Position numbers and translations under genes: made by a program. A DNA stretch of 58,132 bases, the filler included, from Sphacelaria rigidula (lineage: Eukaryota): NCBI GenBank assembly GCA_964200075.2. It is 3 parts of 3 records of this genome, joined end to end, with 100 filler letters (N's around TTAATTAATTAA, not from the genome) between each part and the next. Parts side by side here need not be neighbours in the genome. Positions count along the whole stretch, not along the records: positions 19,419 to 38,727 come from CAXNAA020000689.1; 2 more parts are not named here. One strand, given 5' to 3'. How positions within the stretch are numbered: position 1 is the first letter of the stretch; each line of letters starts with the position of its first letter. The notes under the pieces are model-generated. The model did no database searches, had not been told where the DNA came from, and was given only the letters and a program-made list of their open reading frames with translations. Below are positions 22,034 through 38,310 of the stretch, in pieces.

Positions 22034-22043
22034 GATGGGGTGC

Positions 22044-22648: not shown

Positions 22649-23977
22649 ATGCACGGAGGTGGAGTGACAGCAGTTGAGGCTTGCACACGGTGGCTTTGCA
22701 CCTGTCTCGCGGCCCTCGTCGCGCGACGCGCAGTGTGGGTTGATATCCAAACGTTGCTCCCCGTGACGGAGAAGGCGTACGACACCTTCCGGCAATTCGT
22801 CTCTGCTCTCGGCCCAGGCGCGAGCGCGAAAGACGTCTCGCTGTGCGAGACGGTTGAGCTGCTCTCTGCCCTGCTGGTCGAGGAGCTAGGTGGCAAAGTC
22901 TGGAATGCGCTGGAGGACGCGTGTGCCGCTGTCACGAAGGGCGAATCAGAGACTGTCGTGCGAGACCTGCTCGTCGAAGCCCTATCGCCGGACAGCGTGG
23001 ATGAGGCAGAGGAGCTGCTCCTCGAAGCCCTGTCGCTGGACAGCGTGGACGAGGCAGAGGAATCGGCCGTCTCCCGTGAATTCCCCTTCCCGATCGGAGA
23101 AATCCAGACGCCAGAGGACCTCACGAAGCTTGTTGCTGTTGGTGTTGCGGCGTCGCTGGCCGAGATGAGGAGGTGGGGCCGGAGATCCGACGTCGATCTC
23201 GCCAAGGGAATCGCGACGGATGCTGTGGTGAAAGTACTAGTGAGCTACGAGAAGAAGCTGAACGATGGTACGTGGAAGGAAGAGCCTCGATCTGAGCGCT
23301 TGCGAAGATTGCAGGGAGTAGCCGCGAGGAATCTAACGAAGGACAGATTGCATCGGCTCGTGCGCGAGGTAGGCACGGAAGAGCAAGACCTTGATCGTTC
23401 CATCCATCGACAGAGCCCACCCCCGCCGAATTTTCGACTAGACTCCGATTACTACATCCTTTGGGGCTGCCTCAGGCAATACAATAGAGCGAACGCGACC
23501 GAAGGCCAAAAACGCGCGATCCGGCATATCTGCGCGGAGATGATCGGAATCGATATGTGGTGGCTGCGTCGCATGTTCCGGTTGCTCTTCAACATCCCTA
23601 CCTTGAGCGCAATCGAGGCAGGCGTATATCGGATGAGGAATGCCGTCGTTTCGGCTATCGGCGAAGATCACGAACAGCTGAGCCAGAGGGAGTTGCCTCG
23701 GCTATTGCAGGACACCATGGTCATCTACAATGATCTCGCCGCCGAACTTGTTCAAGCGTGTCAACACAACTTGGTCCAGGGCGTGCTCGACGCTCAGCGC
23801 TTGCGGGCGAGTCTTGTGGGAACTCCACTGTGCTCCGGACCGGGTGTCATGCCAGGCATGCAGCGCCCGGCTGCGCCATCGTTGTCGGCAGATGTGCTCG
23901 TTGCCCGCCTCACCGCCTGGATCATCAACAACCCCAATTTCTGCCCCCAAGTGATTCCAAGAGGAGAAGCGAGATGA
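22649..23977 (+). CDS. Divergent ECF sigma-70-like factor with N- and C-terminal extensions (paralogue 1)
   Basis: Region-2-like IATDAVVKVL...LQGVAARNLTKDRLHR and region-4-like FNIPTLSAIEAGVYRMRNAV. Clear similarity to 36925-38310, and stop overlaps the next start (ATGA). Start is uncertain: ATG 22649 or GTG 22664; the longer ORF would overlap the promoter motif. Confidence 0.65.
   Translation: MHGGGVTAVEACTRWLCTCLAALVARRAVWVDIQTLLPVTEKAYDTFRQFVSALGPGASAKDVSLCETVELLSALLVEELGGKVWNALEDACAAVTKGESETVVRDLLVEALSPDSVDEAEELLLEALSLDSVDEAEESAVSREFPFPIGEIQTPEDLTKLVAVGVAASLAEMRRWGRRSDVDLAKGIATDAVVKVLVSYEKKLNDGTWKEEPRSERLRRLQGVAARNLTKDRLHRLVREVGTEEQDLDRSIHRQSPPPPNFRLDSDYYILWGCLRQYNRANATEGQKRAIRHICAEMIGIDMWWLRRMFRLLFNIPTLSAIEAGVYRMRNAVVSAIGEDHEQLSQRELPRLLQDTMVIYNDLAAELVQACQHNLVQGVLDAQRLRASLVGTPLCSGPGVMPGMQRPAAPSLSADVLVARLTAWIINNPNFCPQVIPRGEAR
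22967..23062 (+). repeat. 48-bp in-frame tandem duplication
   Basis: LLVEALSPDSVDEAEE / LLLEALSLDSVDEAEE, near-identical at DNA level. Confidence 0.95.
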
Positions 23978-25074
23978 CCAAGAAGGACTCGACGCTTGGG
24001 TCAGTGGGTCTAGGCGACCCGGGTCCCGAGGAGATTGCGTCCTTGGACGCGCTGCGTGTTCAGGTGGTTCGAGCTTGCAGGTCGAAGGGCCTCGCTTGCG
24101 AGCTGTCCGATGAGCTTCTGTATCGAGCGATGTCAGGGACCCTTGACCCTGGTTTGCGCGAGGAGGTGCGCGATCTGGCTGGGGATGTGTATGAGGCTCA
24201 GGAGGCCGAGCTTGCTGCTAATGTCAGCGCGCTGATCGCTGGCTCGGAGACTTCGCCGACCCCACTTCGGCTCGGTGTCTCTGAGGTGCTGGCGGAGCGG
24301 GGGACGACGACCGCATTCTCCGAAGAAGTTCTCTATGCGGCGATCGGTGGCTGTCTGAACACCGAAGACCAGGCCCGCGTTGAGGCCATTGCAGAATCTG
24401 AGCTGGCCGCTTTACGCAGCGACCTTGCTGCCGACGTCAGCTCTTTGCTGAAGCGAGCACGGCCATCAACTGCGGCCGTTTCGGAAGACACCGCGTCTAC
24501 GATTGGGACTGCGGTTCGGCGGGACCAAGGCCCATTAGGGGTAGGCGTTGACCGGGCCGAACAGGACCCGGTGGGAGCTGCAAACAAAGAACATCAGTCA
24601 CCAGCCGGAAATGTGATTCCGTTCCGACGTTGGCTGCGTGGGCAAGTCGTGCCCGTGGTCTCAGCACTGGCGGCAAGTATCATCGTGCTCTCGGTAGGGC
24701 GGGTTTGGCTCCAGGATGAAGGTAGTGGGATTCGGGCCATAGGGAACCGCGGACCCGAAGTTTCGGTAGAGTTCTCACCATCAACACGAAGCGTAGGTCC
24801 TTTGCATTGCCCTGGTTGTGGCTTGGGGAGTTTTCCTGGTGCCTTTGAGCTGGTTCTGAAGCCGCAGGTATTGGGCTCTGAGTCGGCCACGCTCACCTAC
24901 CATCTTGATGGCGAAGAAGGCCCGGTATCGGAGTCCATCGACTTCGCTGATGGGCGGTACTGGGCGGCAAAGACGGGCTGGAACCCTAGGCGTCCGATCA
25001 CGGTTACGCTGCCTGAACGGGAGAACCTGGTGGTCGTTGTGCCGATTGCTACCGGCTCTGACGCTGTCCCTTGA
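23974..25074 (+). CDS. Transmembrane anti-sigma-factor-like protein
   Basis: GAGGAG RBS and ATGA coupling to the sigma-like gene. Two copies of an anti-sigma-domain-like helix pair (DELLYRAMSGTLDPGLREEV; EEVLYAAIGGCLNTEDQARVE), a NVIPFRR...ALAASIIVL transmembrane segment typical of anti-sigmas, and a small beta-rich C-terminal domain. Confidence 0.7.
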   Translation: MTKKDSTLGSVGLGDPGPEEIASLDALRVQVVRACRSKGLACELSDELLYRAMSGTLDPGLREEVRDLAGDVYEAQEAELAANVSALIAGSETSPTPLRLGVSEVLAERGTTTAFSEEVLYAAIGGCLNTEDQARVEAIAESELAALRSDLAADVSSLLKRARPSTAAVSEDTASTIGTAVRRDQGPLGVGVDRAEQDPVGAANKEHQSPAGNVIPFRRWLRGQVVPVVSALAASIIVLSVGRVWLQDEGSGIRAIGNRGPEVSVEFSPSTRSVGPLHCPGCGLGSFPGAFELVLKPQVLGSESATLTYHLDGEEGPVSESIDFADGRYWAAKTGWNPRRPITVTLPERENLVVVVPIATGSDAVP

Positions 25075-25076
25075 TT

Positions 25077-25109
25077 CATCGTGGCTGATTCTGGGAGTCA
25101 GCCACGGTG
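25077..25109 (+). terminator. Stem-loop after the anti-sigma-like gene
   Basis: CATCGTGGCTGA...TCAGCCACGGTG, a 12-bp stem with one G-U pair, 2 nt after the stop. No U-tract. Confidence 0.55.
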
Positions 25110-25134
25110 CGAACCGAACTCTTGAAAAAAGGTA

Positions 25135-25160
25135 TGTCAGGAAGGGCTGTCCGCCACGTT
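25135..25160 (+). promoter_or_regulatory. Putative ECF-type promoter TGTCAG-N16-CGTT upstream of cpaF
   Basis: TGTCAG 25135-25140, CGTT 25157-25160, ATG 10 nt later. Preceded by an A-tract (TGAAAAAAG). Confidence 0.75.
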
Positions 25161-25170
25161 GTTGGTACAG

Positions 25171-26289
25171 ATGGCGCATCCCTCGACCTCGACATCCTGG
25201 AGAAACATCTACTCGGCGGCCTTCGCTGACGTTGCGGGTCCGCTCCGGCCCTATCTGGAGGATGACTCCACTACCGAACTCATCGTCAACGGCTCCAACG
25301 CCGTCTACGTCGAGAAGGACGGCAGACTGCGTCGGCTGGAAGACGCCTTTGAAGGTCCGGAGCAGCTCGAGGCGTTTGCGAGGGTGCTGGCCCAGTTCGT
25401 GGGCAAGCGGCTCGAAAACAATGCGCGAATCGACGGTCGGACCCCCGAGGGGGCCCGTGTCCACATTGTGCACGGACCGACCGTGGGTGGCACAATTGTG
25501 GCGATTCGCCGGGCCTCCCACACCCACCGAACCCTCGATGACCTCGTGGCGAAGGATGCGTTGACGGCCGAGGCGGCTGCCTACCTGCGGACCCTTACCC
25601 GCCTGGGTCGCAACATCATCTTCACCGGTCCGCCGTCGTGCGGAAAGACAACGCTGCTTGGCGCGGTGGCGTCTGAACTCGACTCAGGCCTTCGTGTGCT
25701 CGTGCTTGAGGACAGCCGGGAACTCTCGCTCCCGCTTGACCACGTGGTCTACCTTGAGGCCCGCCCGTCAGACGAACACGGCGAGGGCGGGGTGACGCTT
25801 CTCGACCTACTTCACTCGTCGCTTCGCCTGCGGGGTGACGCGCTGGTGGTCGGAGAGGTGAGGGGCGAGGAGGCCCTGCCTCTGGTCTTGGCGCTCACGA
25901 GCGGCTACGCGAGCACGGGGTTGTCGACGTTGCACGCAGCGTCCCCAGGCGCGGCACTGGCCCGCCTAGAGACCCTGTGTCTCATGGCACTGCCTTCGAT
26001 GGCCCCAGAGGCCCTCCGGTTGCTCGTTCGGGAGGCTGTGCACGTAGTTGTTCAGGCAGGTCGCACGTCGATGGGGCGCCGACGTGTCACCACCATCGCG
26101 GAGGTGACGCCGAGCGCGTCCGCCCCAATGGCTATGTTCGACATCGCCCCAACCGGCCCTCAGCAAGGACAAATGGTGTGGACGGGTCGGCGTTCCTGCT
26201 TCGCCGACGATCTTGTGCGCATGGAGATCGCCCCACCGGACACCCCTCCCTTCCATGCTGTGTGTCAGCCGGACAGTGATGGTTCGTAG
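25171..26289 (+). CDS. cpaF: CpaF/TadA-family pilus assembly ATPase
   Basis: ELIVNG, VYVEKDG, IDGRTPEGARVHIV, Walker A GPPSCGKTT, Asp box LEDSREL, Walker B LVVGEVRG, His-box STLHA, ALARLE. Confidence 0.93.
   Translation: MAHPSTSTSWRNIYSAAFADVAGPLRPYLEDDSTTELIVNGSNAVYVEKDGRLRRLEDAFEGPEQLEAFARVLAQFVGKRLENNARIDGRTPEGARVHIVHGPTVGGTIVAIRRASHTHRTLDDLVAKDALTAEAAAYLRTLTRLGRNIIFTGPPSCGKTTLLGAVASELDSGLRVLVLEDSRELSLPLDHVVYLEARPSDEHGEGGVTLLDLLHSSLRLRGDALVVGEVRGEEALPLVLALTSGYASTGLSTLHAASPGAALARLETLCLMALPSMAPEALRLLVREAVHVVVQAGRTSMGRRRVTTIAEVTPSASAPMAMFDIAPTGPQQGQMVWTGRRSCFADDLVRMEIAPPDTPPFHAVCQPDSDGS
26263..26288 (+). promoter_or_regulatory. Putative ECF-type promoter TGTCAG-N16-CGTA upstream of the kinase-like gene
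   Basis: TGTCAG 26263-26268, CGTA 26285-26288, inside the last codons of cpaF and 45 nt before the next ATG. Confidence 0.6.
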
Positions 26290-26333
26290 AATAACCGACG
26301 GCTCCGCTGAGTGCCGTCGAAGGAGGCTGACGC

Positions 26334-27545
26334 ATGGCCGTGATCAGATCAGATCGGTACGTTCGGGACCGAAAACTCAAACAGGATCGGGACCTCGTTG
26401 TCGAGGTGGCTCGAGACGTCGATTCCGGGAGGCGGGTCGTGATCCGTCAGCTCCCTCCAGAGCTTCCCGTCCAGTGTGAAGCTGGGGAGTCGCTCCGACG
26501 CATGAAGGAAGTACTCGACGGTCTTGAGCGGCATCCGCACGTTGAGACGGTCGTTGATTCCGGGACGGACGAGCTGGGTCGACCGGTGCTGGTGACATCG
26601 TACTTTGAGGGCACACCGCTGTCGGTTCGTCTGGAACAGGGACCGCTTCCGGCCACTCGTTGGTTGGCGCTGGCGGTCGAACTCCTCACTATCTTAGACC
26701 ATCTGGCAGGACAGGGCATCCTGCACGGGGACCTGCACCCTGGACACGTGATCGTGAAGGACGACGTGTTGATGGGGATCGTTGACTTAGGAGGCGCCCA
26801 GCAACTCGACCTCCCCAGGACGGTGCGCGGTAGTGACCCCACGACCATGGCCCCGGAGGTCTTGTCGGGCGACAACTACGGCGCACGGACCGAGTTGTAC
26901 TCTACGGGCATGGTGTTACTGCAGGCGGCCGTCGGGCACGAGCGCTGGCGCACGATCGCGGGTGGTTCGAGCCGGGGGCAATCGCGTGATCAGTGGTTCG
27001 GCTTGCACACGAGGGGCTTTCCTGTTCCCGATCTTCGCACAATTGCGGGCGTAGGATGGGACGCCATCTCGGCCGAACCGACACTTCGCCAACTCGTTGC
27101 GCGTGAGCCAACGGACCGGCCCGAGGGCGCTCGTGAGGCTCTTGACCTGCTTTCTCGAGACCTGAACACTGCAATTGCGCCGTTCCTCCCAGCGGAAGGG
27201 AGCATTGATGCAGGGTGGACCGCTATCCAGCGGTCCACGGGGCGTAAGAGAAAGGATGCACGCAACAGCCGGCGTCACGTATGGCTCGCCGGGGCGGCTT
27301 GCTCTTTGCTTGGGCTGGGCCTGCTGGCCGTAGGGGCGCAATCCCGAGGTCGCGCCGCCGGATGCAGACTGGACTCAAGGCTTGAAGCCATGGCGCAAGA
27401 AGCCGTGGGCGACTCACGCAGAGCGCAACGGATCTCCGTCCAACTCGAGGCCGTCGGATGCAGCGACCTTGCGCGAACTCTGCGACAAACGACGTCGTCC
27501 GAGACTGAAGCTGGTCACGCAGACACTCACTTCCGTGCCCCCTGA
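26334..27545 (+). CDS. Membrane-bound Hanks-type Ser/Thr kinase-like protein (probable pseudokinase)
   Basis: AGGAGG RBS. Subdomains HPHVETVVDSG, LHGDLHPGHVIV, IVDLGGA, TMAPEVL, ELYSTGMVL, PTDRP, and TM helix VWLAGAACSLLGLGLLAVG. Confidence 0.85.
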   Translation: MAVIRSDRYVRDRKLKQDRDLVVEVARDVDSGRRVVIRQLPPELPVQCEAGESLRRMKEVLDGLERHPHVETVVDSGTDELGRPVLVTSYFEGTPLSVRLEQGPLPATRWLALAVELLTILDHLAGQGILHGDLHPGHVIVKDDVLMGIVDLGGAQQLDLPRTVRGSDPTTMAPEVLSGDNYGARTELYSTGMVLLQAAVGHERWRTIAGGSSRGQSRDQWFGLHTRGFPVPDLRTIAGVGWDAISAEPTLRQLVAREPTDRPEGAREALDLLSRDLNTAIAPFLPAEGSIDAGWTAIQRSTGRKRKDARNSRRHVWLAGAACSLLGLGLLAVGAQSRGRAAGCRLDSRLEAMAQEAVGDSRRAQRISVQLEAVGCSDLARTLRQTTSSETEAGHADTHFRAP

Positions 27546-27789
27546 GACCGCACCTGGTTCGGCCCGCAACTATCAACTGGACCACGTCAGTTCAGCCTTC
27601 GTCCCATCGCGTGTTGTCTGTGAGCGACGGGCCTCCCATTCCCGAGACTCCCTCAGCCTGACTCGCTGCCTCTCATCACTACCTAATACTATCGCGACAA
27701 TCTCGCCAGAACGCTTTGCCACTATCCCGACAGCAGCAACGTCCAGACCTCCGAAGCCCAGAGCTCGATCGAAAACAACTGAAAAAAGA

Positions 27790-27815
27790 TGTCAGACGAC
27801 CGCATCCAAGAAGTT
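27790..27815 (+). promoter_or_regulatory. Putative ECF-type promoter TGTCAG-N16-AGTT upstream of the Flp-like pilin
   Basis: TGTCAG 27790-27795, AGTT 27812-27815. Preceded by TGAAAAAAG as at cpaF. Confidence 0.7.
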
Positions 27816-27867
27816 ATCAGAACAACACGGAGGCAAAACCTCCATAGACCAAAAGGCGGGATCGAAA

Positions 27868-28047
27868 ATGCAGATCATCAAGTACGGGTACGAATTCTTG
27901 TGGGACGAGTTAGGCGCCGCGGCGGAGACCGTTGCAATCATCGGAGCTATCGCGGTTCCGTTGATCGTCACGCTCTTCTTTGCTGCGAAACAGATCAAGG
28001 AGACGTTCACGTCTGCCATCGAAGTGTTCTCTGGGTTGGTGCTTTAG
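27868..28047 (+). CDS. flp: Flp-like major pilin (59 aa)
   Basis: MQIIKYGYEFLWDELG|AAAETVAIIGAIAVPLIVTLFF...IKETF: F..DE.G leader, hydrophobic helix, Flp size. It is the 3' end of the listed 27382-28047 ORF. Confidence 0.8.
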   Translation: MQIIKYGYEFLWDELGAAAETVAIIGAIAVPLIVTLFFAAKQIKETFTSAIEVFSGLVL

Positions 28048-28125
28048 ACCGACAAGAAAGTGGGGTCGCCTGTGTCGGAGCACCCCCGCTCCCGCGCAGG
28101 CGTCCCACACATAGAAGGAAGAAAG

Positions 28126-28593
28126 ATGCCGAAGACTGAGTGCCCCGGAACCCTTGATACAATTGCAGCGATAATTCTCGCAGCCGTACTGCTGGCGGGT
28201 AGCGCGTGCGCGACCTCCCCCGTAGCTTTGCCGTTGCGCCTCAACCTACTTTCGCTGAGGGTGGTCGAGGTGGAGTCGAAGGATCCAATCTGTCAGGCGA
28301 AATTACGTCTCGAGAATCAGGACAACAAGAGCAGTCTATCAACCTCAGGATGGGCCGCCGTTAGCCATGACGGAAGGGCCTTCTTCACTCACGACCCTGC
28401 GCTTCCCCTCCCGCGGATTGGGATCAGCGTCCCGAGCAACTACTTCACTCCCCCAGCTCGGGGGGTCGAGTTCGACAACGAGTCTCTGTATGAGAAGACG
28501 ATCGTCGTTCGGGCGCGCTCGCGCAAGCACCACCAAGAATCGCAGCGTGAGTGCAAAGAGATCCGTCAGCTCCAGACGAACGCCGCGTACTAA
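28126..28593 (+). CDS. Putative lipoprotein, unknown function
   Basis: GAAGGAAG before ATG 28126; hydrophobic stretch IAAIILAAVLLAGSA|C. Confidence 0.6.
   Translation: MPKTECPGTLDTIAAIILAAVLLAGSACATSPVALPLRLNLLSLRVVEVESKDPICQAKLRLENQDNKSSLSTSGWAAVSHDGRAFFTHDPALPLPRIGISVPSNYFTPPARGVEFDNESLYEKTIVVRARSRKHHQESQRECKEIRQLQTNAAY
28564..28589 (+). promoter_or_regulatory. Putative ECF-type promoter CGTCAG-N16-CGTA upstream of the coiled-coil lipoprotein
   Basis: CGTCAG 28564-28569, CGTA 28586-28589, 26 nt before ATG 28616. Confidence 0.5.
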
Positions 28594-28615
28594 TAGCGAA
28601 AGGGGAGGACAGGAC

Positions 28616-29242
28616 ATGAATCATGGATGGCGTAAGAAGGTATCGACTCTCGGCTTTCTCGTAGTGCTGTTTGTCGGGGCAACGGCTTGCGACGAGGCGC
28701 CTCCGGCCTACCGGGCGCCCGGTGCCGGTAAGGCACCGCTTGAGAACAATAGGCTGCGAAAGAGGACGGAGGGAATCCAAGAGAAGGTTACGCTGGCGAT
28801 GGTGGAGGCCGAGCGTCTGGAGGGGGCCAAGGGTGAGTACATTGCAAAGCTCGAAGCCTGTGAGGACGACCAGCAACAGAGGGCAGAGCGAATCGAGGAA
28901 CTTAACAAGGAGGTCGCTCAGGCCCGTTCCCGTGGCCGCAAGCTTCGCGGCGCTCTGATACGTCTTAAGAAGGAGCAGTCTCGACTGAGGTACATCGAAG
29001 GGCAGATGGTGGGGCATCTACAGCGCGACTTTCCGATTATTCAGGAGAGGAAGTCACAACTCGATCGAATCAGACGCAAACTGACGAGCGGAAACGGCAT
29101 GAATGCGTGCAGGATGTTGATGGTGTTGGGGCAGCGGCTACGCATCGACCTAACGTCTACGCCATCGGACGGATTCGTCCACGGCTACCTCGCCGCCATC
29201 CTGAATCACGTAAATATCCTCTATAAAGAGTGCGGCGGGTGA
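28616..29242 (+). CDS. Coiled-coil lipoprotein, unknown function
   Basis: GGGGAGG RBS; MNHGWRKKVSTLGFLVVLFVGATA|C lipobox; heptad-rich helical body. Confidence 0.7.
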   Translation: MNHGWRKKVSTLGFLVVLFVGATACDEAPPAYRAPGAGKAPLENNRLRKRTEGIQEKVTLAMVEAERLEGAKGEYIAKLEACEDDQQQRAERIEELNKEVAQARSRGRKLRGALIRLKKEQSRLRYIEGQMVGHLQRDFPIIQERKSQLDRIRRKLTSGNGMNACRMLMVLGQRLRIDLTSTPSDGFVHGYLAAILNHVNILYKECGG

Positions 29243-29272
29243 TGACGGATATTCTGGAAGGACTATGAAGAG

Positions 29273-29941
29273 ATGGAACAGAAAGCAATAACGATGACCG
29301 CCGTGGCTATGGCTGTGGCGATAGGCGCGATGGGCTGTGACCACAAGCAAGGGCCGGCGGAGTCGAGTGAACAGCAGGCGATCGCATCCCTTGAGCGCCT
29401 CGATAATGAGCATCAGGAGAAGGAGATTCAGGGCCTCGAGATCCAACTTTCCGGTATGCTCGCCAAGCTCGAAAGCACCTCGGCCGACCTTGCGAATACG
29501 CAGGCGAATTTCGCCGAGTGTGCCGGTCGGCTCGGGCTGCAGACGCCGCAAATTGAGGCCCTGGAAGGGAAGGCGAAGAGAGCGCAGAGGCTGGCGAAGG
29601 ACCTCGGCAAGGCCGTGGCGAGTACAGAGAAAGGGAGGAAGGCGCTTGAAGTAAGCGTGAAGAAGGCGGTCGCGCAGGTTATTGCCCAGGGGGCCTCCGA
29701 CCTCGCAAAACTGCGAGTCGATCGCGATCGCCTCGAGGGAGCGCTACGGGCGGACACCCTCTCTTCGCGGCGCGTGCGCATACTCTGTGAGGCGCTAAGC
29801 GAGGTACTGTCCCGTGCACAAAGGCTCGATGAATTGCACGGCCACCCGCAGGAGATGGCCTGGGAGACCCAACGCCTTGCAGAGATGAACCGTGCGCACT
29901 GCGGTTCCAAAGACCGGCCGTCGAAAGGAAGGGCGTCATGA
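29273..29941 (+). CDS. Coiled-coil lipoprotein, unknown function
   Basis: AVAMAVAIGAMG|C lipobox; long heptad pattern; ATGA overlap with the next gene. Confidence 0.7.
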   Translation: MEQKAITMTAVAMAVAIGAMGCDHKQGPAESSEQQAIASLERLDNEHQEKEIQGLEIQLSGMLAKLESTSADLANTQANFAECAGRLGLQTPQIEALEGKAKRAQRLAKDLGKAVASTEKGRKALEVSVKKAVAQVIAQGASDLAKLRVDRDRLEGALRADTLSSRRVRILCEALSEVLSRAQRLDELHGHPQEMAWETQRLAEMNRAHCGSKDRPSKGRAS

Positions 29942-30456
29942 TTGTGATGGCAGTGGTCTTAATGGCTGCGACCGGGCAATCCGCATCCAATATGCACCCT
30001 ACATCCGTACCGGCGGCTCGGGTCCAGTATCCTCGTTGGGATTATGGTTTTGCCGTGGGAGGTGGGCTCGGCGGACGACGTGAACTCACGGAAGGCGAAG
30101 GAGGACTGAAGGGCTCGCTCGCAGGGGGAGCGCACATTGAGTGCGAGCTTGCCGAGCACTGGGCTTGGGTATCCACGGCGGACCTCCGAATCGGCATCAT
30201 ACCTGTTGCGTTGACGTCAGTCTTCACTCGGTCCGGCATACATGTGCGTTGGAAAATGCTCTTCGCTGGAGCGAACCTCCGGCTCGACGTCTATCCAACG
30301 CCCCCGGCCCCTGCTTTCGAGCCCATCGTCGGGGTTCGGTGGCTCATCGGCGCGACGACGCGTGTTTTCGCGCAAGTCGCCACGCCGCTCTATCCAACCC
30401 GCGCCGACAAGGTCGACGTACTTGTGGAGGCCGGGTTGCGCATCGCGTTCCGGTGA
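29938..30456 (+). CDS. Putative small outer-membrane beta-barrel protein
   Basis: Hydrophobic N-terminus, about 8 alternating amphipathic strands (YGFAVGGGLGG, GIHVRW, VGVRWLIG, RVFAQV), ends EAGLRIAFR. Confidence 0.6.
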   Translation: MIVMAVVLMAATGQSASNMHPTSVPAARVQYPRWDYGFAVGGGLGGRRELTEGEGGLKGSLAGGAHIECELAEHWAWVSTADLRIGIIPVALTSVFTRSGIHVRWKMLFAGANLRLDVYPTPPAPAFEPIVGVRWLIGATTRVFAQVATPLYPTRADKVDVLVEAGLRIAFR

Positions 30457-30470
30457 CCAGGGGATTAAGG

Positions 30471-30635: not shown

Positions 30636-30692
30636 ATCAACGCCACCGACAAGTTAGAGAAGCAGAGTTGTTCGCATTAAAGGAGGCAGGGC

Positions 30693-31181
30693 ATGAGGAA
30701 GATCGAGAAGTACCGCCGAACCACGCGTGGACATGCAGCGATATCGGTCATGCTCGCGCTCCCCGTACTCCTCGGGTTCCTGGACCTTATGACTCAGGCT
30801 GTGGTCTTCGCTTGGGGCGTGAGCCTCAGCGGGCACGCCGCGGTGCGCGTCGCGCGGTCAGCCAGCGTGCTCGTCTCGCAGAGGCTCGAGAACGACGCCC
30901 CCAACGTGCTGGGCGCCGCGAAGAGAGTTAGGCTTGAGGAGGTTGCTCGCACCGCGCTTGCGCCTCTTGGGGAACGTCTGGCGATGACCCTGGATGTGCG
31001 AGACGGCACCTTCGGGCCGACCGAAATGATCGAGGTGCGACTCGACGTTGGACTGCCCTGCATCGCCCCCATGTGGGGGCGCTTGCTCTGCGATGAAAGA
31101 GAGGGGCAAGTCCGCCGACGATGGGTACGACACACGGTCTATATGCCAAACGAGGGACATCGCCATCTGGGCAGAAGGTGA
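30693..31181 (+). CDS. TadE-like pseudopilin
   Basis: AAAGGAGG RBS; RRTTRG|HAAISVMLALPVLLGFL...GHAAVRVARSASV (TadE AA..AAR.A motif). Confidence 0.8.
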   Translation: MRKIEKYRRTTRGHAAISVMLALPVLLGFLDLMTQAVVFAWGVSLSGHAAVRVARSASVLVSQRLENDAPNVLGAAKRVRLEEVARTALAPLGERLAMTLDVRDGTFGPTEMIEVRLDVGLPCIAPMWGRLLCDEREGQVRRRWVRHTVYMPNEGHRHLGRR

Positions 31182-31187
31182 GACACT

Positions 31188-32387
31188 ATGAAGACTGCAA
31201 GAAGAACCCGCCGAGGGATGGTGTCCATCTGGACGATGCTCGTGTTTATTGGACTCGTAGCGCTGGTATGCTTCGCGCACAACGCGGCCCGGTCGGTGTC
31301 GGCTGCGACGGAGGCCCAGGTGGCAGCGGACAACGCCGCGATGACCTTCGCCACGACTTACGCCCGCGGGCTCAACAAGATCGAGACTCTCAACCAGGAA
31401 TTGTCATTGATTATGGGCGCAAGAGCTGTCGCGGAAGCTCTGCCACGTGCACTCAGGGACTGCCGGACAACGGCGGTCGCACTGGCTGCGGCGACTTCCT
31501 GGTGGGGCGGCTGGGTGATTTACGGGCCGTATCTCGAAGCCCTTAACGTCCTGATCCCCACCGCCGACGGGCTTAGGGCCGTCGTGGTCGGTGCAGCGCA
31601 AGTACGCTTGCCTGTGTTGGCGCAGCAGGCGTACAGAATGGCCAAGGGTACGCCTGCCCTCGCCACGCAGACCGCGAGAGCTTCCATCGCAGAGACGGGC
31701 ATCACGGTGACCTTCGTGCCCCTAGACCCTGAGGGTGACCTCGAACTCCCAGTCCAACCTCGACCCCTCGGAGCCCTCTGCTCGTGGGTCAAGGACGGTT
31801 CACCCCAGGGGGCGGACAGCCGGCAACGCCGCGTCTTCTCTGCCCTCTGGGGGTGGCGAGAAGACGAAGGCACAGCCGAGCACATCGCCAAGGGGTGGAG
31901 CCTGCCGGAGCTGTTCAATATCGCCCTCGCCCCAGTGGGCGGCCCGTTCCACTGGTCCCATCGGCTCAAGGAGGCCGTTAGAGACGAATGCGATCGCACG
32001 GAACCGGGACCGTATCTGTTTCCATCGACGTCCAATCCTGTCGAGAAAGCAGCCCAGCGAACCCAGTTCCTAGCCCTGACATTAGCTCCTCGGCCCCTCC
32101 TGCTCGATGTCATCGCGCCTCGTAGCGGTGAACGTACATTCGAGCGTACCGAGACCACCGCGCTCCTCTCGACCGCCACGGTCGAGCTCGCCAACGATGT
32201 AAGCATCGGGTGTGCGAGCAGCGCCTCGTGGGCTCCGCAGCTGGTCTTCGAGCCGGACGCGACGCTTGCAGCCGTCGCTCGTGTGGGGGATCTCGGGCTT
32301 TCCGAGGCAATGAGCACCACCATCACAAACCGCTTTCGCCATCACGCGCGCGTCGCAGTTGGACGTGGCTTTAGCGCCTCTCACTAG
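31188..32387 (+). CDS. TadG-like pilus-assembly protein
   Basis: RRTRRG|MVSIWTMLVFIGLVALVCF...EAQVAADNAAMTFATTYARGLN matches the Tad N-terminal Q.AAD.AA motif. Confidence 0.8.
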   Translation: MKTARRTRRGMVSIWTMLVFIGLVALVCFAHNAARSVSAATEAQVAADNAAMTFATTYARGLNKIETLNQELSLIMGARAVAEALPRALRDCRTTAVALAAATSWWGGWVIYGPYLEALNVLIPTADGLRAVVVGAAQVRLPVLAQQAYRMAKGTPALATQTARASIAETGITVTFVPLDPEGDLELPVQPRPLGALCSWVKDGSPQGADSRQRRVFSALWGWREDEGTAEHIAKGWSLPELFNIALAPVGGPFHWSHRLKEAVRDECDRTEPGPYLFPSTSNPVEKAAQRTQFLALTLAPRPLLLDVIAPRSGERTFERTETTALLSTATVELANDVSIGCASSASWAPQLVFEPDATLAAVARVGDLGLSEAMSTTITNRFRHHARVAVGRGFSASH

Positions 32388-32639
32388 CGGGACCAGGCGT
32401 TCGAAAGGGGCACAAGGCTTGGTCCTCGCTTTCTCTCTAAGACGAGGCGTCGCAGAGTGCACCCGCAGACCAGTTTTGGCTTAGTCCCTTGCTCAGAAAT
32501 TCGAGCAATCAAGTCGGAAGGCCTCAGTATCCAGTATGCGGGCGCGCAATAATCTGGCATGATTGCGTGTTGCTCAACGGGGCGCCAGCCGTATGTGCTG
32601 TCTTGCCATTCCGCCCTGAACAAGAATCGAGAGTCCAAC

Positions 32640-33125
32640 ATGTCCGGAGAAAGCTTGAAAGCGTCTCGAACTGCACGAGTGACACCCACGCTAAACGTCG
32701 AAGCGTCCGTGGACCTCGTCTGTCACCAGCTCGGCGAGACTCGTGAGCAGCCGTCAAGCCGAGAGCAAGTCCTTCAGAAGCGCGATGAACTAGTCTATCG
32801 CGCGCTAGTGGGTGAACTCGACCCTCGCCTTACCAACGAGGTACGGGAGTTATTCGCGGACCGTATTGAGGAACTTGGACTGCAGGTCGATGGCGAGGTA
32901 TGTTGGCTCATCGGCGCCTCGACCATTGCCCTCGCGCTTGAGATCGCAGAAAAAGCAGCCGCGGAAGGCGTGAGCGTCGAGTTGCCCGATAGTCTGCTTG
33001 AAGCTGCGGCTGAAGGCAAACTGAGCGAGGAGGTGACGGCACGTCTTGAAGCGATCGCATGGCCCGAGCTTGCCGCGACCCGTCTTGTCGTTTGGGGCAG
33101 GGCTGGCAAGGGGGACTTAGGATGA
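32640..33125 (+). CDS. Soluble paralogue of the anti-sigma-like N-terminal double domain
   Basis: DELVYRALVGELDPRLTNEVRELFAD aligns with DELLYRAMSGTLDPGLREEVRDLAGD, and ARLEAIAWPELAA with ARVEAIAESELAA. No TM helix. Confidence 0.7.
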   Translation: MSGESLKASRTARVTPTLNVEASVDLVCHQLGETREQPSSREQVLQKRDELVYRALVGELDPRLTNEVRELFADRIEELGLQVDGEVCWLIGASTIALALEIAEKAAAEGVSVELPDSLLEAAAEGKLSEEVTARLEAIAWPELAATRLVVWGRAGKGDLG

Positions 33126-33131
33126 AATCAC

Positions 33132-33172
33132 GGGCAGCTTGCAGCTCCCTGTTGAGCTGTCAAAGGCTGCCT
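33132..33172. terminator. Stem-loop between convergent genes
   Basis: GGCAGC.TTG.CAGCTC-loop-GAGCTG.CAA..GCTGCC in the 66-nt gap between two stop codons. Confidence 0.5.
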
Positions 33173-33191
33173 GACGCGGACGAGCCGGCCA

Positions 33192-36100
33192 TCATAGTCG
33201 GCCGTCCTTAGTCGGGCCCTCAATTCCTTGAGCCGATGCTGCCAGTGTCTCTTCGTATCGCTGCCTCAGGTAAGCCCAGTGCGGCCGCCTAGAGTAATCC
33301 AGCAAACGGATGAGATTATCGAACCTAGCTTGATCGTGCGCAACCAGGTCGCGCACCTGAATTCTGTGTTGAGCATCTCCTTCGTCGCTAAGTAGCAAGC
33401 ACCTCGCCGTCTCCAGTCGCTCCTCTAGATGCTGAAGTCGAATCCGTGCATTAGAGCCTCCATCAACAAGATAGACGTCCGCCTCATGTAATACTCGAAA
33501 ACATCGCAAAAGGTCCCCAGATACGACGCGGATGTACATGCTCTGGAGAATCAGGATGCGGGCCTTTTCCTCCGGAAGGTCAATGCTGTGTTGCGACAGC
33601 GTGTCAATATATCGGCGGGCCTCCTCCGCAAAGAAGTAATCATCCACCCAAGCTAAGCGACGAGGCCCTTGTTGGGCCTGAAACTCATACAGCCGCAGAC
33701 AAATACGGACAAGGACTCTTGATGGGTGCGAACTGAGCCGGTTCCCCCCACTGAGAGGGCGCAGGAGGAAGTGGATCCTACGAAGGGTCTCGGCGAAACG
33801 AAAGCATGCGAGTGCCTCGACAAGAAGAGGGACTTCATGCTCTCGCGCTGGCTCATCCTCAATGTGGAGCTGCCGAACCATAATTTCAGCGACTCGAAAC
33901 ACGAGATCGGCAGCCTCTGGAATACAGTGTCGAGCGATGCATGCTCTGACCAAACTGGTTCCAAGAGCAACCGCTTCCACGACTTTCGTATCGGGACCGC
34001 GGCCGTTCTCGGGCCCGATTGAGCCTTCGATGATTGACCTCATTCGCCGGGCTAGGAGCTGAACACCATCGCCCGAAGAGTTCCCCCTCATTTCCTGCGC
34101 CAACCCGCGTGATACGCCATATACTGCCCCCATTGCTGACGCCGCCCCGGGGACTTCCTTGTCGAGATTCAGAGACTTTAACCACGACTCGGCCTCCGCC
34201 GTTGCATCCTCAAGCGAATCACAGTGTACCGCGGCATCTACAAGGACTTTGGATATCGAGCCCCTTTTTCGTTGCTGTGCCCTTACGTACAACAGCCCGG
34301 CGGGAGCGGGAGCGGCTGCGTGATTATCCTTAAGGAACTCTTCTGCCAGCCGCTTTGCTTCATCTGCCATCCCTGTGTCGAGTTCGGCTCGAGCACTAGC
34401 TAAGATGAAGTCGCCCACCAGTTGCTGGCTCGCCTCGACGGTTAATAGGGATCCTGGACCTGCCTGAGGAAATACAGACTCCCAGGCTTGCCGAGTTAGC
34501 TTGAGTAGCTCCCGCTTCTCGTTGCCGGCCTGAAGGACCCGCGCAAGGCGCCACCTGGGCGGTGCCTCCAGAATTCCGCGGTAGAAGATCGTATATAGTC
34601 GAGCGAACATCTCGCTGGGATCCGATGGAAGTAGCCGCTTTCGGTATGAGCGAAGTTCTTCGGACGGAAGGCCCCATATTATGGACTCATACCCGTGGCG
34701 GAGCCCCTGGAGCATCCTGCGGTAGAACAGTAGTGATTCGGATGACCTCCAGATCGCGTGTCTTGATACGATGGCATCCTGCCTTAGGCACTCCTCGCAG
34801 ATGATCAGGTGCGCAAGGCCGATATCATGCCGACTATCCATGTCTTTCGACAAGCGACTCCCATCCAGAGATTTTCGGAGGAGGAGCTTAAGGCCTCCGT
34901 CAGCCAGCCAAAGGCGACGCGACCGTCTATTATTACGGATTTCGGCGCTCTCTTGGTCTAGGTAAGATGTAGAGTCGGCAGCATATTCCAGGCCAGGTAT
35001 TCGCTCGGGGTCACCCTCAACAATAATCTGCGGAAGTTGGCTCTGAAAACGCGAAAGGCCTCCAAGAATCGCTTTGGAATCCTCGTTACTCGGTGGAGCG
35101 CTGCCTGGGGCCAATCCCTCGGCGCACGCCGGGCCCGCCTCACGCAGGCTGCACCAGAGTGCGATGAAGCGCGCCAATCGCACTTTGTTGACACCATCAT
35201 CAACAAGGGAAAGAAAGACGATGGTAAGCCAGAGATGAATGTCTCGCTCTCTCAAAACGCTGAGGAACATCGCAGCGGCGTCCTCGGGTCGCGACATCTC
35301 GGACAAACGACGTTCATCGTGACCACCCAGGGAGATCATCGCGTCAACTACAACAAAGAAGTAGTGCTCGTAGTGTCCCCCGTGGGCGAGAGCGCTCAAC
35401 TCCCTCCAACTCGCGAACTGACTCTTTAGAACAGAATCGAGATTTTCGGCCGGCAAACGAGGTAGCATGCGGCGCTTTGTTCGGGGCGTCTGCTCGGTCA
35501 GTCGCGTGCAGGTTTGCGTTGACGTCGTGCCAACAAGGAACGTGGGACGCACAATTCCATAAGTGATTCGGTCGCCGTCGGGAGGATCTGAATCTTGGAC
35601 GGAGAAGTGTGGCCAGAGAAGCTGGTCGATGAGCCTGTGTATTGAGTTACCCGTAATTGCCTCTGTTAGATGCGGGTAGTCAGCTGACGGTGACTCCCCC
35701 ACTCCATCAAAGAGGATAATGGTCCTTTGGCGCTGCAGGCCACTTCGGACTCTATCTAGGGTCGGTCGAATCCAACCCGTGTCGTTGTAGTCAGGGATTT
35801 GCTCGCTGAGGTCCTGTCTGCTCCGGTCCTTGAGGTACGCGTCCAACCAGAAAAGGACCTTGTGGGCGTCAATGTGCCAGTGGGGTGTCAAATAGGAGGA
35901 AACCGGAAGATAGAGATACTCAGTATCGGCAGGATCCAAATGAGTGTGAATAATATATCGAAGCGACTCTGTGATGAGCCACGGAGGCATCGCACCGCCC
36001 AAGAGCAAGGTGATCTCTGTGGTCCCACGGAGTATGTCCTTTGCTACATCACTGAGCTCCTTTTTACGCTCGTCCGTCAGGACGAGATTGCCTGGTGATT

Positions 36101-36668
36101 CCTTTGCGCCGGGCAGGAGACAGCTGTTCCCCCTTGGTCGAAGGACGCGGACAAGACCGCGATAGAAGCTAAGATAGGACTCATCGTAGGAATCACCCTG
36201 TGGCGGATGGGGCTCCCTAAGAAGGTTCCGGAGCTCGTCTGTCAACCGGGCCAAGCGGGTCTCTGGCATTTGGTCGAAGAGATGGGAATGCGCCCACTCG
36301 ATGAGCTCTGACGAAGCTTGGGCATGGTTGGGTGTGCGTGGGTCCTTGTGTGTGAGATCAAGATCGAGCCATCTTCTGGCGTTCTTGGTGTCGGGCGCAT
36401 CACGCGAACGCTTCACCACATCCAACATTCTGTCCAAGCGATTTGAGGGGCCCCTAGTCGGAAGAAAGTAGGAGAGTGCTTCGCACAGAAGCCTGTACCT
36501 CGGAGCCATTCCCAAGCCAAGCGCGTCGTCGACTAGATGTCGGTCGCGCGCCTTCTTGGGGTGGGTCTTTACGTTGAGAAGCAGGCGCTTGGCCTTGACG
36601 AAGTCATGTGGATGGTCAGGGAAGTGCACTGGTGTCGCTCTCGCCGGGTGGGGTTTCGAATGGGTCAT
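33192..36668 (-). CDS. 1158-aa protein resembling a degenerate STAND NTPase with helical/TPR-like C-terminus
   Basis: Long uninterrupted ORF. Walker-B-like RTIILFDGVGE and sensor-1-like FLVGTTS, but no GxxxxGK[ST]; helical repeat-like C-terminal half. CDS is secure, family call is tentative. Confidence 0.6.
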   Translation of the reverse strand: MTHSKPHPARATPVHFPDHPHDFVKAKRLLLNVKTHPKKARDRHLVDDALGLGMAPRYRLLCEALSYFLPTRGPSNRLDRMLDVVKRSRDAPDTKNARRWLDLDLTHKDPRTPNHAQASSELIEWAHSHLFDQMPETRLARLTDELRNLLREPHPPQGDSYDESYLSFYRGLVRVLRPRGNSCLLPGAKESPGNLVLTDERKKELSDVAKDILRGTTEITLLLGGAMPPWLITESLRYIIHTHLDPADTEYLYLPVSSYLTPHWHIDAHKVLFWLDAYLKDRSRQDLSEQIPDYNDTGWIRPTLDRVRSGLQRQRTIILFDGVGESPSADYPHLTEAITGNSIHRLIDQLLWPHFSVQDSDPPDGDRITYGIVRPTFLVGTTSTQTCTRLTEQTPRTKRRMLPRLPAENLDSVLKSQFASWRELSALAHGGHYEHYFFVVVDAMISLGGHDERRLSEMSRPEDAAAMFLSVLRERDIHLWLTIVFLSLVDDGVNKVRLARFIALWCSLREAGPACAEGLAPGSAPPSNEDSKAILGGLSRFQSQLPQIIVEGDPERIPGLEYAADSTSYLDQESAEIRNNRRSRRLWLADGGLKLLLRKSLDGSRLSKDMDSRHDIGLAHLIICEECLRQDAIVSRHAIWRSSESLLFYRRMLQGLRHGYESIIWGLPSEELRSYRKRLLPSDPSEMFARLYTIFYRGILEAPPRWRLARVLQAGNEKRELLKLTRQAWESVFPQAGPGSLLTVEASQQLVGDFILASARAELDTGMADEAKRLAEEFLKDNHAAAPAPAGLLYVRAQQRKRGSISKVLVDAAVHCDSLEDATAEAESWLKSLNLDKEVPGAASAMGAVYGVSRGLAQEMRGNSSGDGVQLLARRMRSIIEGSIGPENGRGPDTKVVEAVALGTSLVRACIARHCIPEAADLVFRVAEIMVRQLHIEDEPAREHEVPLLVEALACFRFAETLRRIHFLLRPLSGGNRLSSHPSRVLVRICLRLYEFQAQQGPRRLAWVDDYFFAEEARRYIDTLSQHSIDLPEEKARILILQSMYIRVVSGDLLRCFRVLHEADVYLVDGGSNARIRLQHLEERLETARCLLLSDEGDAQHRIQVRDLVAHDQARFDNLIRLLDYSRRPHWAYLRQRYEETLAASAQGIEGPTKDGRL

Positions 36669-36924
36669 TATCCAGGGGTTGCGGGTGTGAACCCGAGGGG
36701 GTCATAGCTGAAACAACGGCGGAGATCGAGGGGGCCCACATGCCGTCAAATGTGCGGACTCGGGGAGCTTGGGGAGTCGGCGCAACCGCACAGGCCGATA
36801 TCGGAGCATATGGAGCCACTGAAGAACTGATGGGAGTCACAAAAACCCTAGACATATCAAGCGGTTACCGGTTCGCGCGGGTTGCAATCGCCATTGCGAT
36901 TGGTCAGAATAGTGGTGTGGGCTG

Positions 36925-38310
36925 ATGAGTGCACCAGGGTCGGTGCAACGCTCAGCCCCGGGGAGGATGACTGAAATGCCAGATGTGCAAAGGCCCGGAT
37001 CGAACGCGTCGATAAGGGCGGCCCTTCTTGACAGGGTTGATTTGGGTGTGTCTAGGGCTGAGCAAGGCATTCGACCTTGCTCCTCGGAAGATCTACCCCT
37101 AGGCCTCGAGAGATGCGCCCTATTGAGAGCATCGTTCCGAGAAAAGGTCAGCAACACGGCTTGCGCAGCCATCAAGTTGTCCTGCGAATCGGCTGGAGCG
37201 CTCTCGCCTAGCCAAATGCGCGCCCAGCTACTCGCGCTCGGCGACGCAACTAAAGTCGGAGCAGAGTCGCATGAACTCATACTAGCTGACTTTCCCGTGA
37301 GCCACCTCAAGGACGAGAAGGACCTCGCGGCCCTGCTTCACGCCCTTGAAGAGAAGTCCGGCGAACGGATCCCTTTCCCTGTGGGGAGGATACAAACCCT
37401 GGAAGACCTCAAGCACATCAACCAGGTGGGGCTCCATACTATCAGGCGAGAACTCGCCCGAAGGAGAAGACTCGACCTTGAAGAGTATATTGAGGATGAG
37501 GCAGAACAAGCCACCCGAAGAACACTCGCGGCGTACCAAGGATTTCTCGTTAACGAGACTTGGAAGGATTCTGGTTCATCAGGACTGGTAAGATACCACA
37601 CCGTTGTTGCACGCTACGCGGCCCGTGACTTATTGCGGCGTAATAAGCATAGGCCCCAGGCCGACCTCCGGTCTCGTGCCGCTAGAGACTTCGCGCGGAA
37701 CGGATCCGACCTAGACCTTGTCATGCTCATCGCGAGCGCCACCTGTCTTGGCGACATGGGCTGGCTCTCTGAGCGAGTGGAGCAAGGCCTGATGATCGCC
37801 TTGGCAGAGGAACTCGGCGGGGATCCGTGGTGGGTGCGGCGCGTGCTCGGGTGCATCTACGGGTTTCCATCGAAAGCTGCGCTGGAGCAGGCCGTGAGTC
37901 GGGCGCGGCCTGCCTTGATGGGCTTGAACGACCACTACGGCCTCTCCGTTACCGAGCGGATACGTCACGCGGAGGAGCCCCTGGAGGTGCTTGAAAAGCA
38001 CCTCCACGAAACATCCAGCTCCCGATACGAGCCGTTGGTCAAAAAGAGAAGGGCATTGAGGGCCGTGAAGGAGTTAAGATGGATCCGGAGCCATGATTGG
38101 AGAGAGATTGCAAAGGCAGGAGAGCCTCTCCTCACGCAGCTTGCTGACGTGCTCGCGAAGGCAATTCAAAACCGGCTTCTGGATGGGATTCTGTACGGAG
38201 CTCGACTTACACACTTGGCGGACGACCATAATAACACTGAAATCGCACTAATGCGCATCCAAGAATTTGGCGCTCGGCACCAAGGGTTCTATCACTGCTG
38301 TCGCGGGTGA
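36925..38310 (+). CDS. Divergent ECF sigma-70-like factor (paralogue 2)
   Basis: PFPVGRIQTLEDL (vs PFPIGEIQTPEDL), region-2-like VVARYAARDLLRR, region-4-like YGFPSKAALEQAVSRARPAL, shared WW(V/L)RR motif. ATG 36976 has GGAGG 9 nt upstream and may be the true start. Confidence 0.65.
   Translation: MSAPGSVQRSAPGRMTEMPDVQRPGSNASIRAALLDRVDLGVSRAEQGIRPCSSEDLPLGLERCALLRASFREKVSNTACAAIKLSCESAGALSPSQMRAQLLALGDATKVGAESHELILADFPVSHLKDEKDLAALLHALEEKSGERIPFPVGRIQTLEDLKHINQVGLHTIRRELARRRRLDLEEYIEDEAEQATRRTLAAYQGFLVNETWKDSGSSGLVRYHTVVARYAARDLLRRNKHRPQADLRSRAARDFARNGSDLDLVMLIASATCLGDMGWLSERVEQGLMIALAEELGGDPWWVRRVLGCIYGFPSKAALEQAVSRARPALMGLNDHYGLSVTERIRHAEEPLEVLEKHLHETSSSRYEPLVKKRRALRAVKELRWIRSHDWREIAKAGEPLLTQLADVLAKAIQNRLLDGILYGARLTHLADDHNNTEIALMRIQEFGARHQGFYHCCRG

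Follow-up and report, generated by a model that had tools for sequence, protein, structure and literature searches.

Two paralogous proteins with a predicted sigma domain 2 and a putative membrane anti-sigma-like partner on a bacterial-type contig

TWO PARALOGOUS GENES

The sigma-like proteins described here are encoded in a stretch of 58,132 nucleotides, filler included, from the genome assembly of Sphacelaria rigidula (GCA_964200075.2), hereafter called the window. Two genes of the plus strand, at 22649-23977 (paralogue 1, 442 aa) and 36925-38310 (paralogue 2, 461 aa), code for related proteins in which profile comparisons and structure models point to features of sigma factors, in particular those of the extracytoplasmic function (ECF) type. 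Paralogue 1 overlaps the gene of a membrane protein predicted to bind its product, and a soluble relative of this partner is encoded upstream of paralogue 2.

The window contains two identical linkers of the form N44-TTAATTAATTAA-N44, at 19319-19418 and 38728-38827, and is therefore a concatenation of at least three contigs rather than one continuous locus. These linkers form the left and right edges of the middle contig (19419-38727, 19.3 kb, record CAXNAA020000689.1), on which both paralogues are found. Its G+C content is ~56-66% against ~43-52% in the flanks, and its open reading frames (ORFs) are dense and mostly co-directional. The flanks, 1-19318 and 38828-58132, contain only about a dozen ORFs of at least 150 aa; none of their nine longest frames has a Pfam match, and no tRNA or Rfam match was found in them. 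They carry tandem and interspersed repeats of 38-73 nt, for example at 16176-16314 and 18647-18869, and look like non-bacterial or non-coding DNA. Judged from these features of the sequence, the middle piece reads as a bacterial-type contig joined between unrelated sequences, inside a non-bacterial-looking assembly, and nothing beyond 19419-38727 bears on the sigma-like genes.

The preliminary description of this DNA had reported two paralogous proteins of ~450 aa, and the comparison of the two ORFs agrees with it. The proteins share 80 identities over 314 positions (25%, E 4e-13 in BLASTP), and in tblastn each of them retrieves only the other copy from the whole window (E 8.6e-11 and 1.7e-12), the next-best match having an E-value of 0.65. 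The G+C content at the three codon positions (GC1/GC2/GC3) is of coding type in both genes, 0.65/0.45/0.68 in paralogue 1 and 0.64/0.46/0.63 in paralogue 2. In paralogue 1 the open frame extends upstream as far as a GTG at 22508.

All motifs listed at the outset reappear as invariant columns of the pairwise alignment. There are six of them, which correspond in paralogue 1 to P146-L158 for PFP(I/V)G.IQT.EDL, residues 208-210 for TWK, A226-R236 for AR...(K/R)D.L.R, A296-R308 for AE..G.D.WW.RR, P317-R330 for P...A.E..V.R.R and L363-L385 for the C-terminal LA..L..A.Q..L..G.L...RL. The proteins exceed the ~200 aa of a compact two-domain ECF sigma factor by a factor of two, in keeping with the long terminal extensions noticed earlier: ~145 aa at the N-terminus and ~100 aa at the C-terminus surround a core, and neither extension matches any family. 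The sigma-domain-2-like part, delimited by the analyses presented below, would cover residues ~144-236 of paralogue 1, including its PFPIG hairpin motif (23078-23356, plus strand; placed by hhalign, the predicted complex interface and alignment to the modelled paralogue 2), and residues ~147-245 of paralogue 2 (37363-37659, plus strand), which is the sole confidently modelled segment. A candidate region-4-like helix-turn-helix (HTH), for which hhalign gives a weak signal, lies further downstream in each gene, at 23516-23653 in paralogue 1 (AE.IG.D.WW.RR followed by P...A.E..V.R.R) and at 37798-37932 in paralogue 2, both on the plus strand.

Within paralogue 1, a 48-nt stretch is duplicated in tandem (22964-23059, copies 90% identical) and encodes two acidic repeats of 16 aa (DLLVEALSPDSVDEAE-like) just ahead of the PFPIG motif; this repeat is absent from paralogue 2.

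THE MEMBRANE PARTNER AND ITS SOLUBLE PARALOGUE

The gene downstream of paralogue 1 (23974-25074, plus strand) encodes a protein of 366 aa, and its ATG at 23974 overlaps the stop codon of paralogue 1 (23975-23977) in an ATGA arrangement. Hydropathy reveals a single transmembrane (TM) segment, residues 220-247, separating a cytoplasmic N-terminal part from an outer part of ~120 aa. The adjacent membrane anti-sigma-like gene of the preliminary description is thus present at paralogue 1. The same description had paralogue 2 devoid of such a neighbour, which is half right: a gene at 32559-33125 (plus strand), 3.8 kb upstream of paralogue 2 across a divergent gene of 1158 codons, encodes a protein of 188 aa that lacks a TM segment and is paralogous to the N-terminal part of the membrane partner (43 of 103 positions identical, 42%, E 8e-15). 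Two paralogous pairs of genes are therefore present on the contig.

The motif L(Y/E)(R/A)A..G.L....R.E occurs twice in both the partner and its soluble paralogue. In an hhalign comparison with the N-termini of 22 zf-HC2 anti-sigma factors, the first copy in the partner aligned with the first helix of the anti-sigma domain (ASD) with a score of 21.5 (P 0.0078) and the second with a P-value of 0.16, reversed controls scoring 14.7 and 15.7 and cross-controls 12.2-16.0. Pfam yielded no match for the partner at E<=0.01, and the only sign of zf-HC2 was a match of E 2.1 in the soluble paralogue.

SEARCHES FOR RELATIVES

Word-seeded homologue searches of 5.8 billion clusters were empty for paralogue 2, for the alignment of the pair (E<=0.1) and for the core alignment (E<=10). 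An exhaustive phmmer search of 1,835,955,588 representative proteins with paralogue 2 as query found none at E<=0.001. Scanning contigs with a degenerate pattern followed by tblastn gave 311 pattern matches in metagenomes and 95 in viruses, none of them confirmed. To the depth of these searches, the sigma-like proteins are without detectable relatives in large databases, and only two sequences are to hand.

With Pfam and NCBIfam at E<=10, paralogue 1 retrieved TetR_C_14 (E 0.086) and a phosphopantetheine-binding model (E 0.021), and paralogue 2 retrieved no row. The isolated core of paralogue 1 matched TetR_C_14 at E 0.0027 with 18.1 bits, under the cut-off of 22.7; a TetR-type regulator was rejected on the grounds that this one sub-threshold match concerns paralogue 1 only. 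A sequence-profile search of the PDB gave five matches at E<=10, the best being a Cas3 at 0.21, and no sigma factor among them. PHROGs and PADLOC returned no match for either sigma-like protein, and a role as defence-system component was discarded on the PADLOC result.

PROFILE COMPARISONS WITH SIGMA REGIONS 2 AND 4

Two alignments served as templates for profile-profile comparison with hhalign: A2, made of 21 ECF-sized sigma genes from Pseudomonadota genomes, and A3, made of 16 PF07638-type ECF genes, a family that we take to be ECF43. The pair of paralogues compared over its whole length with A2 scored 27.0 (P 0.0037), placing residues 179-235 of paralogue 1 on ECF columns 40-93, that is, regions 2.2-2.4. 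The controls scored less: 17.3 for the reversed template, 17.0 for the reversed query and 19.5 at most in 100 column shuffles.

When the core was divided, its first half scored 26.4 against the sigma-2 half of A2 (P 1.6e-4), again at regions 2.2-2.4. Set against the sigma-4 half of the same alignment, the second half gave a weak signal of 16.6 (P 0.017). Four cross-comparisons, pairing the sigma-2-like half with the sigma-4 halves of A2 and A3 and the reverse, were null (P 0.12-0.28); none of 100 column shuffles reached either of the two real half-wise A2 scores, and the reversed templates scored 8.7 and 13.0. Against A3, the whole-length alignment extended over 128 columns and was collinear from region 2 through to the HTH of region 4.2, with region-4 registers that differ among templates.

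In the A2 comparison, P...A.E..V.R.R falls on the recognition helix of region 4.2 ('..TV.sR..RAR..L'), and WW.RR lies one helix earlier. The register proposed at first for WW.RR and the HTH is thereby retained, within the limits of a weak match (P 0.017).

STRUCTURE MODELS AND LANGUAGE-MODEL NEIGHBOURS

AlphaFold2 (AF2) was applied to a core of 223 aa, namely residues 143-365 of paralogue 2 aligned with paralogue 1. The model has a mean predicted local distance difference test (pLDDT) of 52.4 and a predicted template modelling score (pTM) of 0.46; its residues 11-100 reach a pLDDT of 59-82 and comprise a small hairpin, made by PFPVGRIQT, and then three long helices.

Alignment of this model with 48,161 representative chains of the PDB by VIA-align gave 57 chains with Z>=5 and none with Z>=8. 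Sigma domain-2 structures account for 21 of the 50 matches listed out of these 57, at Z 5.2-6.7. ShbA comes first among them (Z 6.7, 90 aligned residues, 22% identity), then sigma-28 (6.3), SigB, a sigma-70 fragment and the N-terminal domain of SigE (6.1 each), sigmaE region 2, WhiG and BldN (5.9 each), SigK (5.8), AlgU (5.6), SigH (5.4) and SigC (5.3), among others. Among the matches listed, sequence identity is mostly 10-22% in sigma rows and mostly 2-10% in the others. When the top 327 chains of Foldseek were re-aligned, 22 had Z>=5 and ranks 1-21 were all sigma chains, chain F of the polymerase-complex entries being presumably the sigma subunit. The N-terminal domain of SigE was the best of them (Z 6.9, root mean square deviation 2.3 A, 74 of 74 residues). 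Among the weak Foldseek rows of BFVD, 5 of the best 50 are named sigma. No single score carries the fold evidence; what counts is that one family, chosen beforehand, dominates the matches, and the first half of the core is predicted on this basis to adopt the sigma domain 2 fold.

Protein language-model neighbours, rows of which are often due to chance, gave sigma families as all four nearest named clusters of the paralogue 1 core, with scores of 0.91-0.92 and 131-138 of 256 features shared (Sigma70_ECF 95%, Sigma70_r2 38% and 100%, Sigma70_r4_2 31%). The nearest named cluster of paralogue 2 carries Sigma70_r2 (69%).

The similarity to sigma domains 2 and 4 announced by the preliminary description is supported by the predicted fold for domain 2, the best match of the modelled part, and takes the form of a weak profile signal for domain 4.

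A PREDICTED COMPLEX WITH THE MEMBRANE PARTNER

ESMFold2 was run with residues 140-362 of paralogue 1 and residues 15-170 of the partner. The complex scored 0.65, 0.70 and 0.68 (median 0.68) against 0.00 in all three controls, with a contact agreement between runs of at least 43% and a partner pLDDT of at least 62. Among solved complexes, 51 of 78 attain the mark applied, as do 2 of 108 mismatched pairs. The predicted interface comprises residues 142-150 (PFPIG hairpin), 155-205 and 219 of paralogue 1, and residues 117-128 (second motif) and 148-169 of the partner, whose interface motif is also the part best conserved in the soluble paralogue. Paralogue 1 is thus predicted by modelling to bind the downstream membrane protein.

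NEIGHBOURING GENES AND A CANDIDATE PROMOTER MOTIF

The genes around the two pairs resemble in part a Tad/Flp-pilus locus. Downstream of the membrane partner, 25159-26289 (plus strand) encodes a secretion ATPase of the TadA family (T2SSE E 3.3e-30; TIGR03819 E 1.5e-60, under the curated cut-off), for which genome contigs contained only two related loci, both in metagenome-assembled genomes of Methylobacter and, at 38% identity, too distant for placing the contig. It is followed by a membrane-anchored Ser/Thr protein kinase at 26334-27545 (plus strand; Pkinase E 3.8e-15, TM segment 315-336), a possible second regulator. Kinase models of PADLOC recognise this protein as well (PD-T4-6, E 2.1e-22), probably because of features general to kinases and not of a role in defence. 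A Flp-pilin-like gene of 59 codons (27868-28047, plus strand; no family match, and none in Pfam for its enclosing frame) and TadE-like genes at 21951-22451 and 30693-31181 were read by eye, and 31188-32387 encodes a weakly TadG-like protein (PF13400 E 0.0097). No gene for the platform, the secretin or the prepilin peptidase of a Tad/Flp locus could be recognised along the 19.3 kb of the contig.

Two adjacent coiled-coil proteins with weak SMC-like matches are encoded at 28616-29242 and 29273-29941, in the interval that separates the Flp-like gene from the second TadE-like gene; the one at 29273-29941 has a lipoprotein-like signal (…AIGAMGC). At the left end of the contig, 19430-22003 encodes a TPR+CHAT protein (CHAT E 4.3e-29) with a C-terminal hydrophobic segment (residues 828-854). 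Its ORF begins 11 nt past the linker, its 5' end being probably cut at the contig edge, and three tandem repeats of 126 nt (19435-19818) encode TPR-like units. The gene that separates the soluble anti-sigma-like paralogue from paralogue 2 (33192-36668, minus strand) has a coding-like composition, and its product of 1158 aa is an orphan that found no match in Pfam, NCBIfam, PHROGs or PADLOC. A strongly coding-like ORF of 106 codons (38267-38587, GC3 0.74) shares 44 nt with the end of paralogue 2; it has no family match, and the contig ends close behind it.

A bipartite motif, CTTCA-N14-CCGATATC, is found at 22459-22485 (plus strand), 164 nt upstream of paralogue 1, and is a candidate promoter. 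The only other copy in the window, CTTCA-N15-CCGATATC at 36797-36824 (minus strand), lies upstream of the 1158-codon gene and points towards it. The pattern CTTCA-N14/15-CCGATAT thus occurs exactly twice in the window for 0.19 expected, and at least two copies appeared in 1 of 100 shuffles; the pattern was set after being seen and is a lead only. Motif enumeration in 11 upstream regions yielded nothing common to more than three.

INTERPRETATION

The explanation to which we give a somewhat better than even chance is that the two proteins and their partners form a new and very divergent variant of the sigma/anti-sigma theme, in which a factor derived from the sigma-70/ECF family is held by a membrane anti-sigma-like partner, with a second such pair nearby. 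The proteins probably work like sigma-70-family factors and descend from that family. The core of ~200 aa would consist of the PFP(I/V)G hairpin, the sigma-domain-2-like module, a linker and a probable degenerate region-4 HTH. Paralogue 1 would be co-translated with the single-pass membrane protein, the cytoplasmic part of which would dock in anti-sigma fashion on the hairpin and on the helices that open the sigma-2-like module. We infer that a signal from the envelope, transmitted through the outer domain of the partner or through the neighbouring membrane Ser/Thr kinase, would release the sigma-like protein, and that the freed protein would bind RNA polymerase and direct it to promoters in the Tad/Flp-pilus-like cluster that surrounds these genes. 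The soluble partner paralogue of 32559-33125 would form a like pair with paralogue 2.

A number of results weigh against this explanation. At the level of sequence, Pfam and NCBIfam at E<=10 reported no Sigma70 family, whether the proteins were scanned whole or as isolated cores, and a hidden Markov model (HMM) built from the 21 ECFs and run with --max on the 79 stop-to-stop frames of the contig gave no signal: it scored 0.0 for paralogue 2 (rank 3 of 79) and -1.6 for paralogue 1 (rank 19). The comparison with sigma HMMs, proposed earlier as a check, accordingly failed to bring the proteins into a sigma family. The whole-length hhalign match to A2 has a probability of only 8.9%, that to A3 a P-value of 0.061, and the matched half comparisons with A3 P-values of 0.15-0.17. 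According to an uncertain hhalign mapping, neither the invariant Q of region 2.2 nor the tryptophan of 'WL' is conserved, and at the position of DAED paralogue 1 has IATD and paralogue 2 EAEQ.

The models call for similar caution. AF2 produced no usable model of the full-length pair (pLDDT 39.1), the core model rests on an alignment of two sequences, and its region-4 half, with a pLDDT below 50, is not confidently modelled. Foldseek with the core model retrieved nothing at E<=0.001 from the PDB (best E 0.29) or from BFVD. Unrelated membrane and helical proteins are interspersed with the sigma structures at equal Z in VIA-align (urea transporter 6.7, PTS IIC 6.5), and fold-match Z values of 5-6.9 are under the level that a common helical arrangement can reach in models. 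As to the partner, its anti-sigma hhalign score was reached by 3 of 100 shuffles, and the zinc motif H-x3-C-x2-C follows neither motif in the partner or in its soluble paralogue. The predicted interface is confined to the sigma-2-like part, the ESMFold2 mark was also reached by 7 of 44 blindly drawn neighbouring genes, and the success of the complex may reflect what the model remembers of solved sigma/anti-sigma structures.

Part of these results would be accommodated if the proteins were not sigma factors, their sigma-2-like helical module binding the membrane partner within a signalling adaptor or another membrane-sequestered transcription regulator that serves the Tad-like secretion or pilus locus. 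Fold support concerns the sigma-2-like half only, which is also alone in the predicted interface; the second half has no confident model and TetR_C_14 as its best, sub-threshold Pfam hint; key ECF-invariant residues appear not to be conserved, and the proteins are more than twice as long as an ECF. This second half is, however, best placed on the recognition helix of sigma-4.2 (P 0.017 against 0.24-0.28 for sigma-2, with none of the 100 shuffles reaching the score), the two similarities follow one another in the order of a sigma factor, and the language-model neighbours include region-4 and whole-ECF families, and we regard an adaptor or other regulator as fairly unlikely.

A chance resemblance, with unrelated orphan all-helical proteins lying next to a membrane protein that has nothing to do with anti-sigma factors, would agree with the silence of HMMER, the lack of homologues in any database searched, the low hhalign probabilities and the middling Z values, which are common for helical models. 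It would leave unexplained that four kinds of test (profile-profile comparison, fold ranking, language-model neighbours and complex prediction) agree on a family named a priori. Sigma chains, presumably a minority of the PDB clusters (their share being uncounted), take ranks 1-21 of the 327 re-aligned chains and 21 of the 50 VIA-align matches listed; the off-diagonal and reversed controls are null, and the complex scores 0.68 against 0.00. We consider such a coincidence improbable. Spurious frames or an assembly artefact, suggested by the many long open frames that arise in GC-rich DNA and by the isolated piece spliced into a pseudomolecule, deserve practically no credence and are effectively refuted by the protein-level paralogy (E 4e-13, with little similarity of the DNA) and the coding-type codon-position GC of both frames, to which the operon-like ATGA coupling and the second, anti-sigma-like paralogous pair nearby may be added.

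The sigma/anti-sigma explanation can be carried further, into a scheme that is doubtful when taken as a whole. The two proteins might be the first members of an unseen clade of large, three-part sigma-like factors, with the PFP(I/V)G hairpin dedicated to docking a new anti-sigma family, zinc-free and with a tandem motif, that exists in membrane and soluble forms; the extensions, and the kinase acting at IATD, might add control over the Tad-like locus.

HMMs are the usual means of recognising sigma factors. Should the two proteins prove to be genuine members, the family would reach beyond what Pfam, NCBIfam and the HMMER-based ECF classification detect, and such members would possess long extensions at both ends and a different mode of anti-sigma docking. 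Structure and complex prediction can in this way rescue the annotation of proteins that have no homologue in ~1.8 billion representatives.

COMPARISON WITH KNOWN SIGMA AND ANTI-SIGMA SYSTEMS

Since the proteins match no sigma HMM and have twice the size of an ECF, they are placed in no ECF group. Of the sigma/ECF classification put forward at first, the likeness to domain 2 is supported, and membership of an ECF group is not supported, no curated sigma HMM recognising either protein.

Class I anti-sigma factors (ASD/zf-HC2) and the membrane partner have the same layout, in which one TM segment connects an N-domain in the cytoplasm with an outer domain, and the L..A..G.L motif of the partner weakly matches the first ASD helix. 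The partner differs from them by the missing H-x3-C-x2-C, by a motif present twice in tandem and by the absence of Pfam-level membership.

Additional segments on an ECF-like core are known from ECF121/BldN, with its N-terminal pro-sequence, and from ECF41/42 and the CorE-type factors, with their C-terminal extensions. As far as the consulted part of the ECF classification goes, ECFs are extended less often at the N-terminus than at the C-terminus, and generally by a shorter segment, and the N-terminal extension of BldN occurs together with an anti-sigma factor (Casas-Pastor et al. 2021, PMC7826278); the same part of that source makes no mention of proteins extended at length on both sides. The paralogues depart from these extended groups by ~100-145 additional aa at both ends and by the lack of any family match.

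A membrane Ser/Thr kinase two genes downstream of paralogue 1 recalls ECF43, as in the pairs EcfP/PknT and EcfK/PknS. Members of ECF43 have no DAED motif, and phosphorylation of a threonine at that place activates them, according to the consulted part of Marcos-Torres et al. (2022, PMC8999054). With the hhalign mapping, IATD of paralogue 1 resembles the STTA of EcfP in its reduced number of acidic residues and its threonine (PMC8999054, same part). The likeness to the ECF43 threonine site is suggestive at the level of sequence, and a phosphorylation of paralogue 1 there is purely conjectural. The profile match to the 16 PF07638-type ECFs is weak, as seen above. Kinase-linked ECF groups are typically without co-encoded anti-sigma factor in the portion of PMC7826278 considered here, and in this respect paralogue 1, co-encoded with an anti-sigma-like gene, differs from them.

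The closest parallel is offered by ECF sigma factors (group 4) with a membrane anti-sigma factor, such as sigmaE/RseA, AlgU/MucA and SigK/RskA. The paralogues differ from the ECFs of these systems in matching neither Sigma70_r2, r4, r4_2 nor the ECF HMMs, in their 442-461 aa instead of ~200 aa, with extensions at both termini, in the apparent loss of ECF-invariant residues and in a predicted partner contact limited to the sigma-2-like part. A conserved PFP(I/V)G hairpin, the predicted docking site, precedes the sigma-2-like helices. The two kinds of system would have in common the succession of a sigma-2-like part and a candidate sigma-4.2-like HTH, and, encoded by a coupled downstream gene, a single-pass membrane protein with a cytoplasmic N-domain as the predicted binding site for the sigma-like protein.

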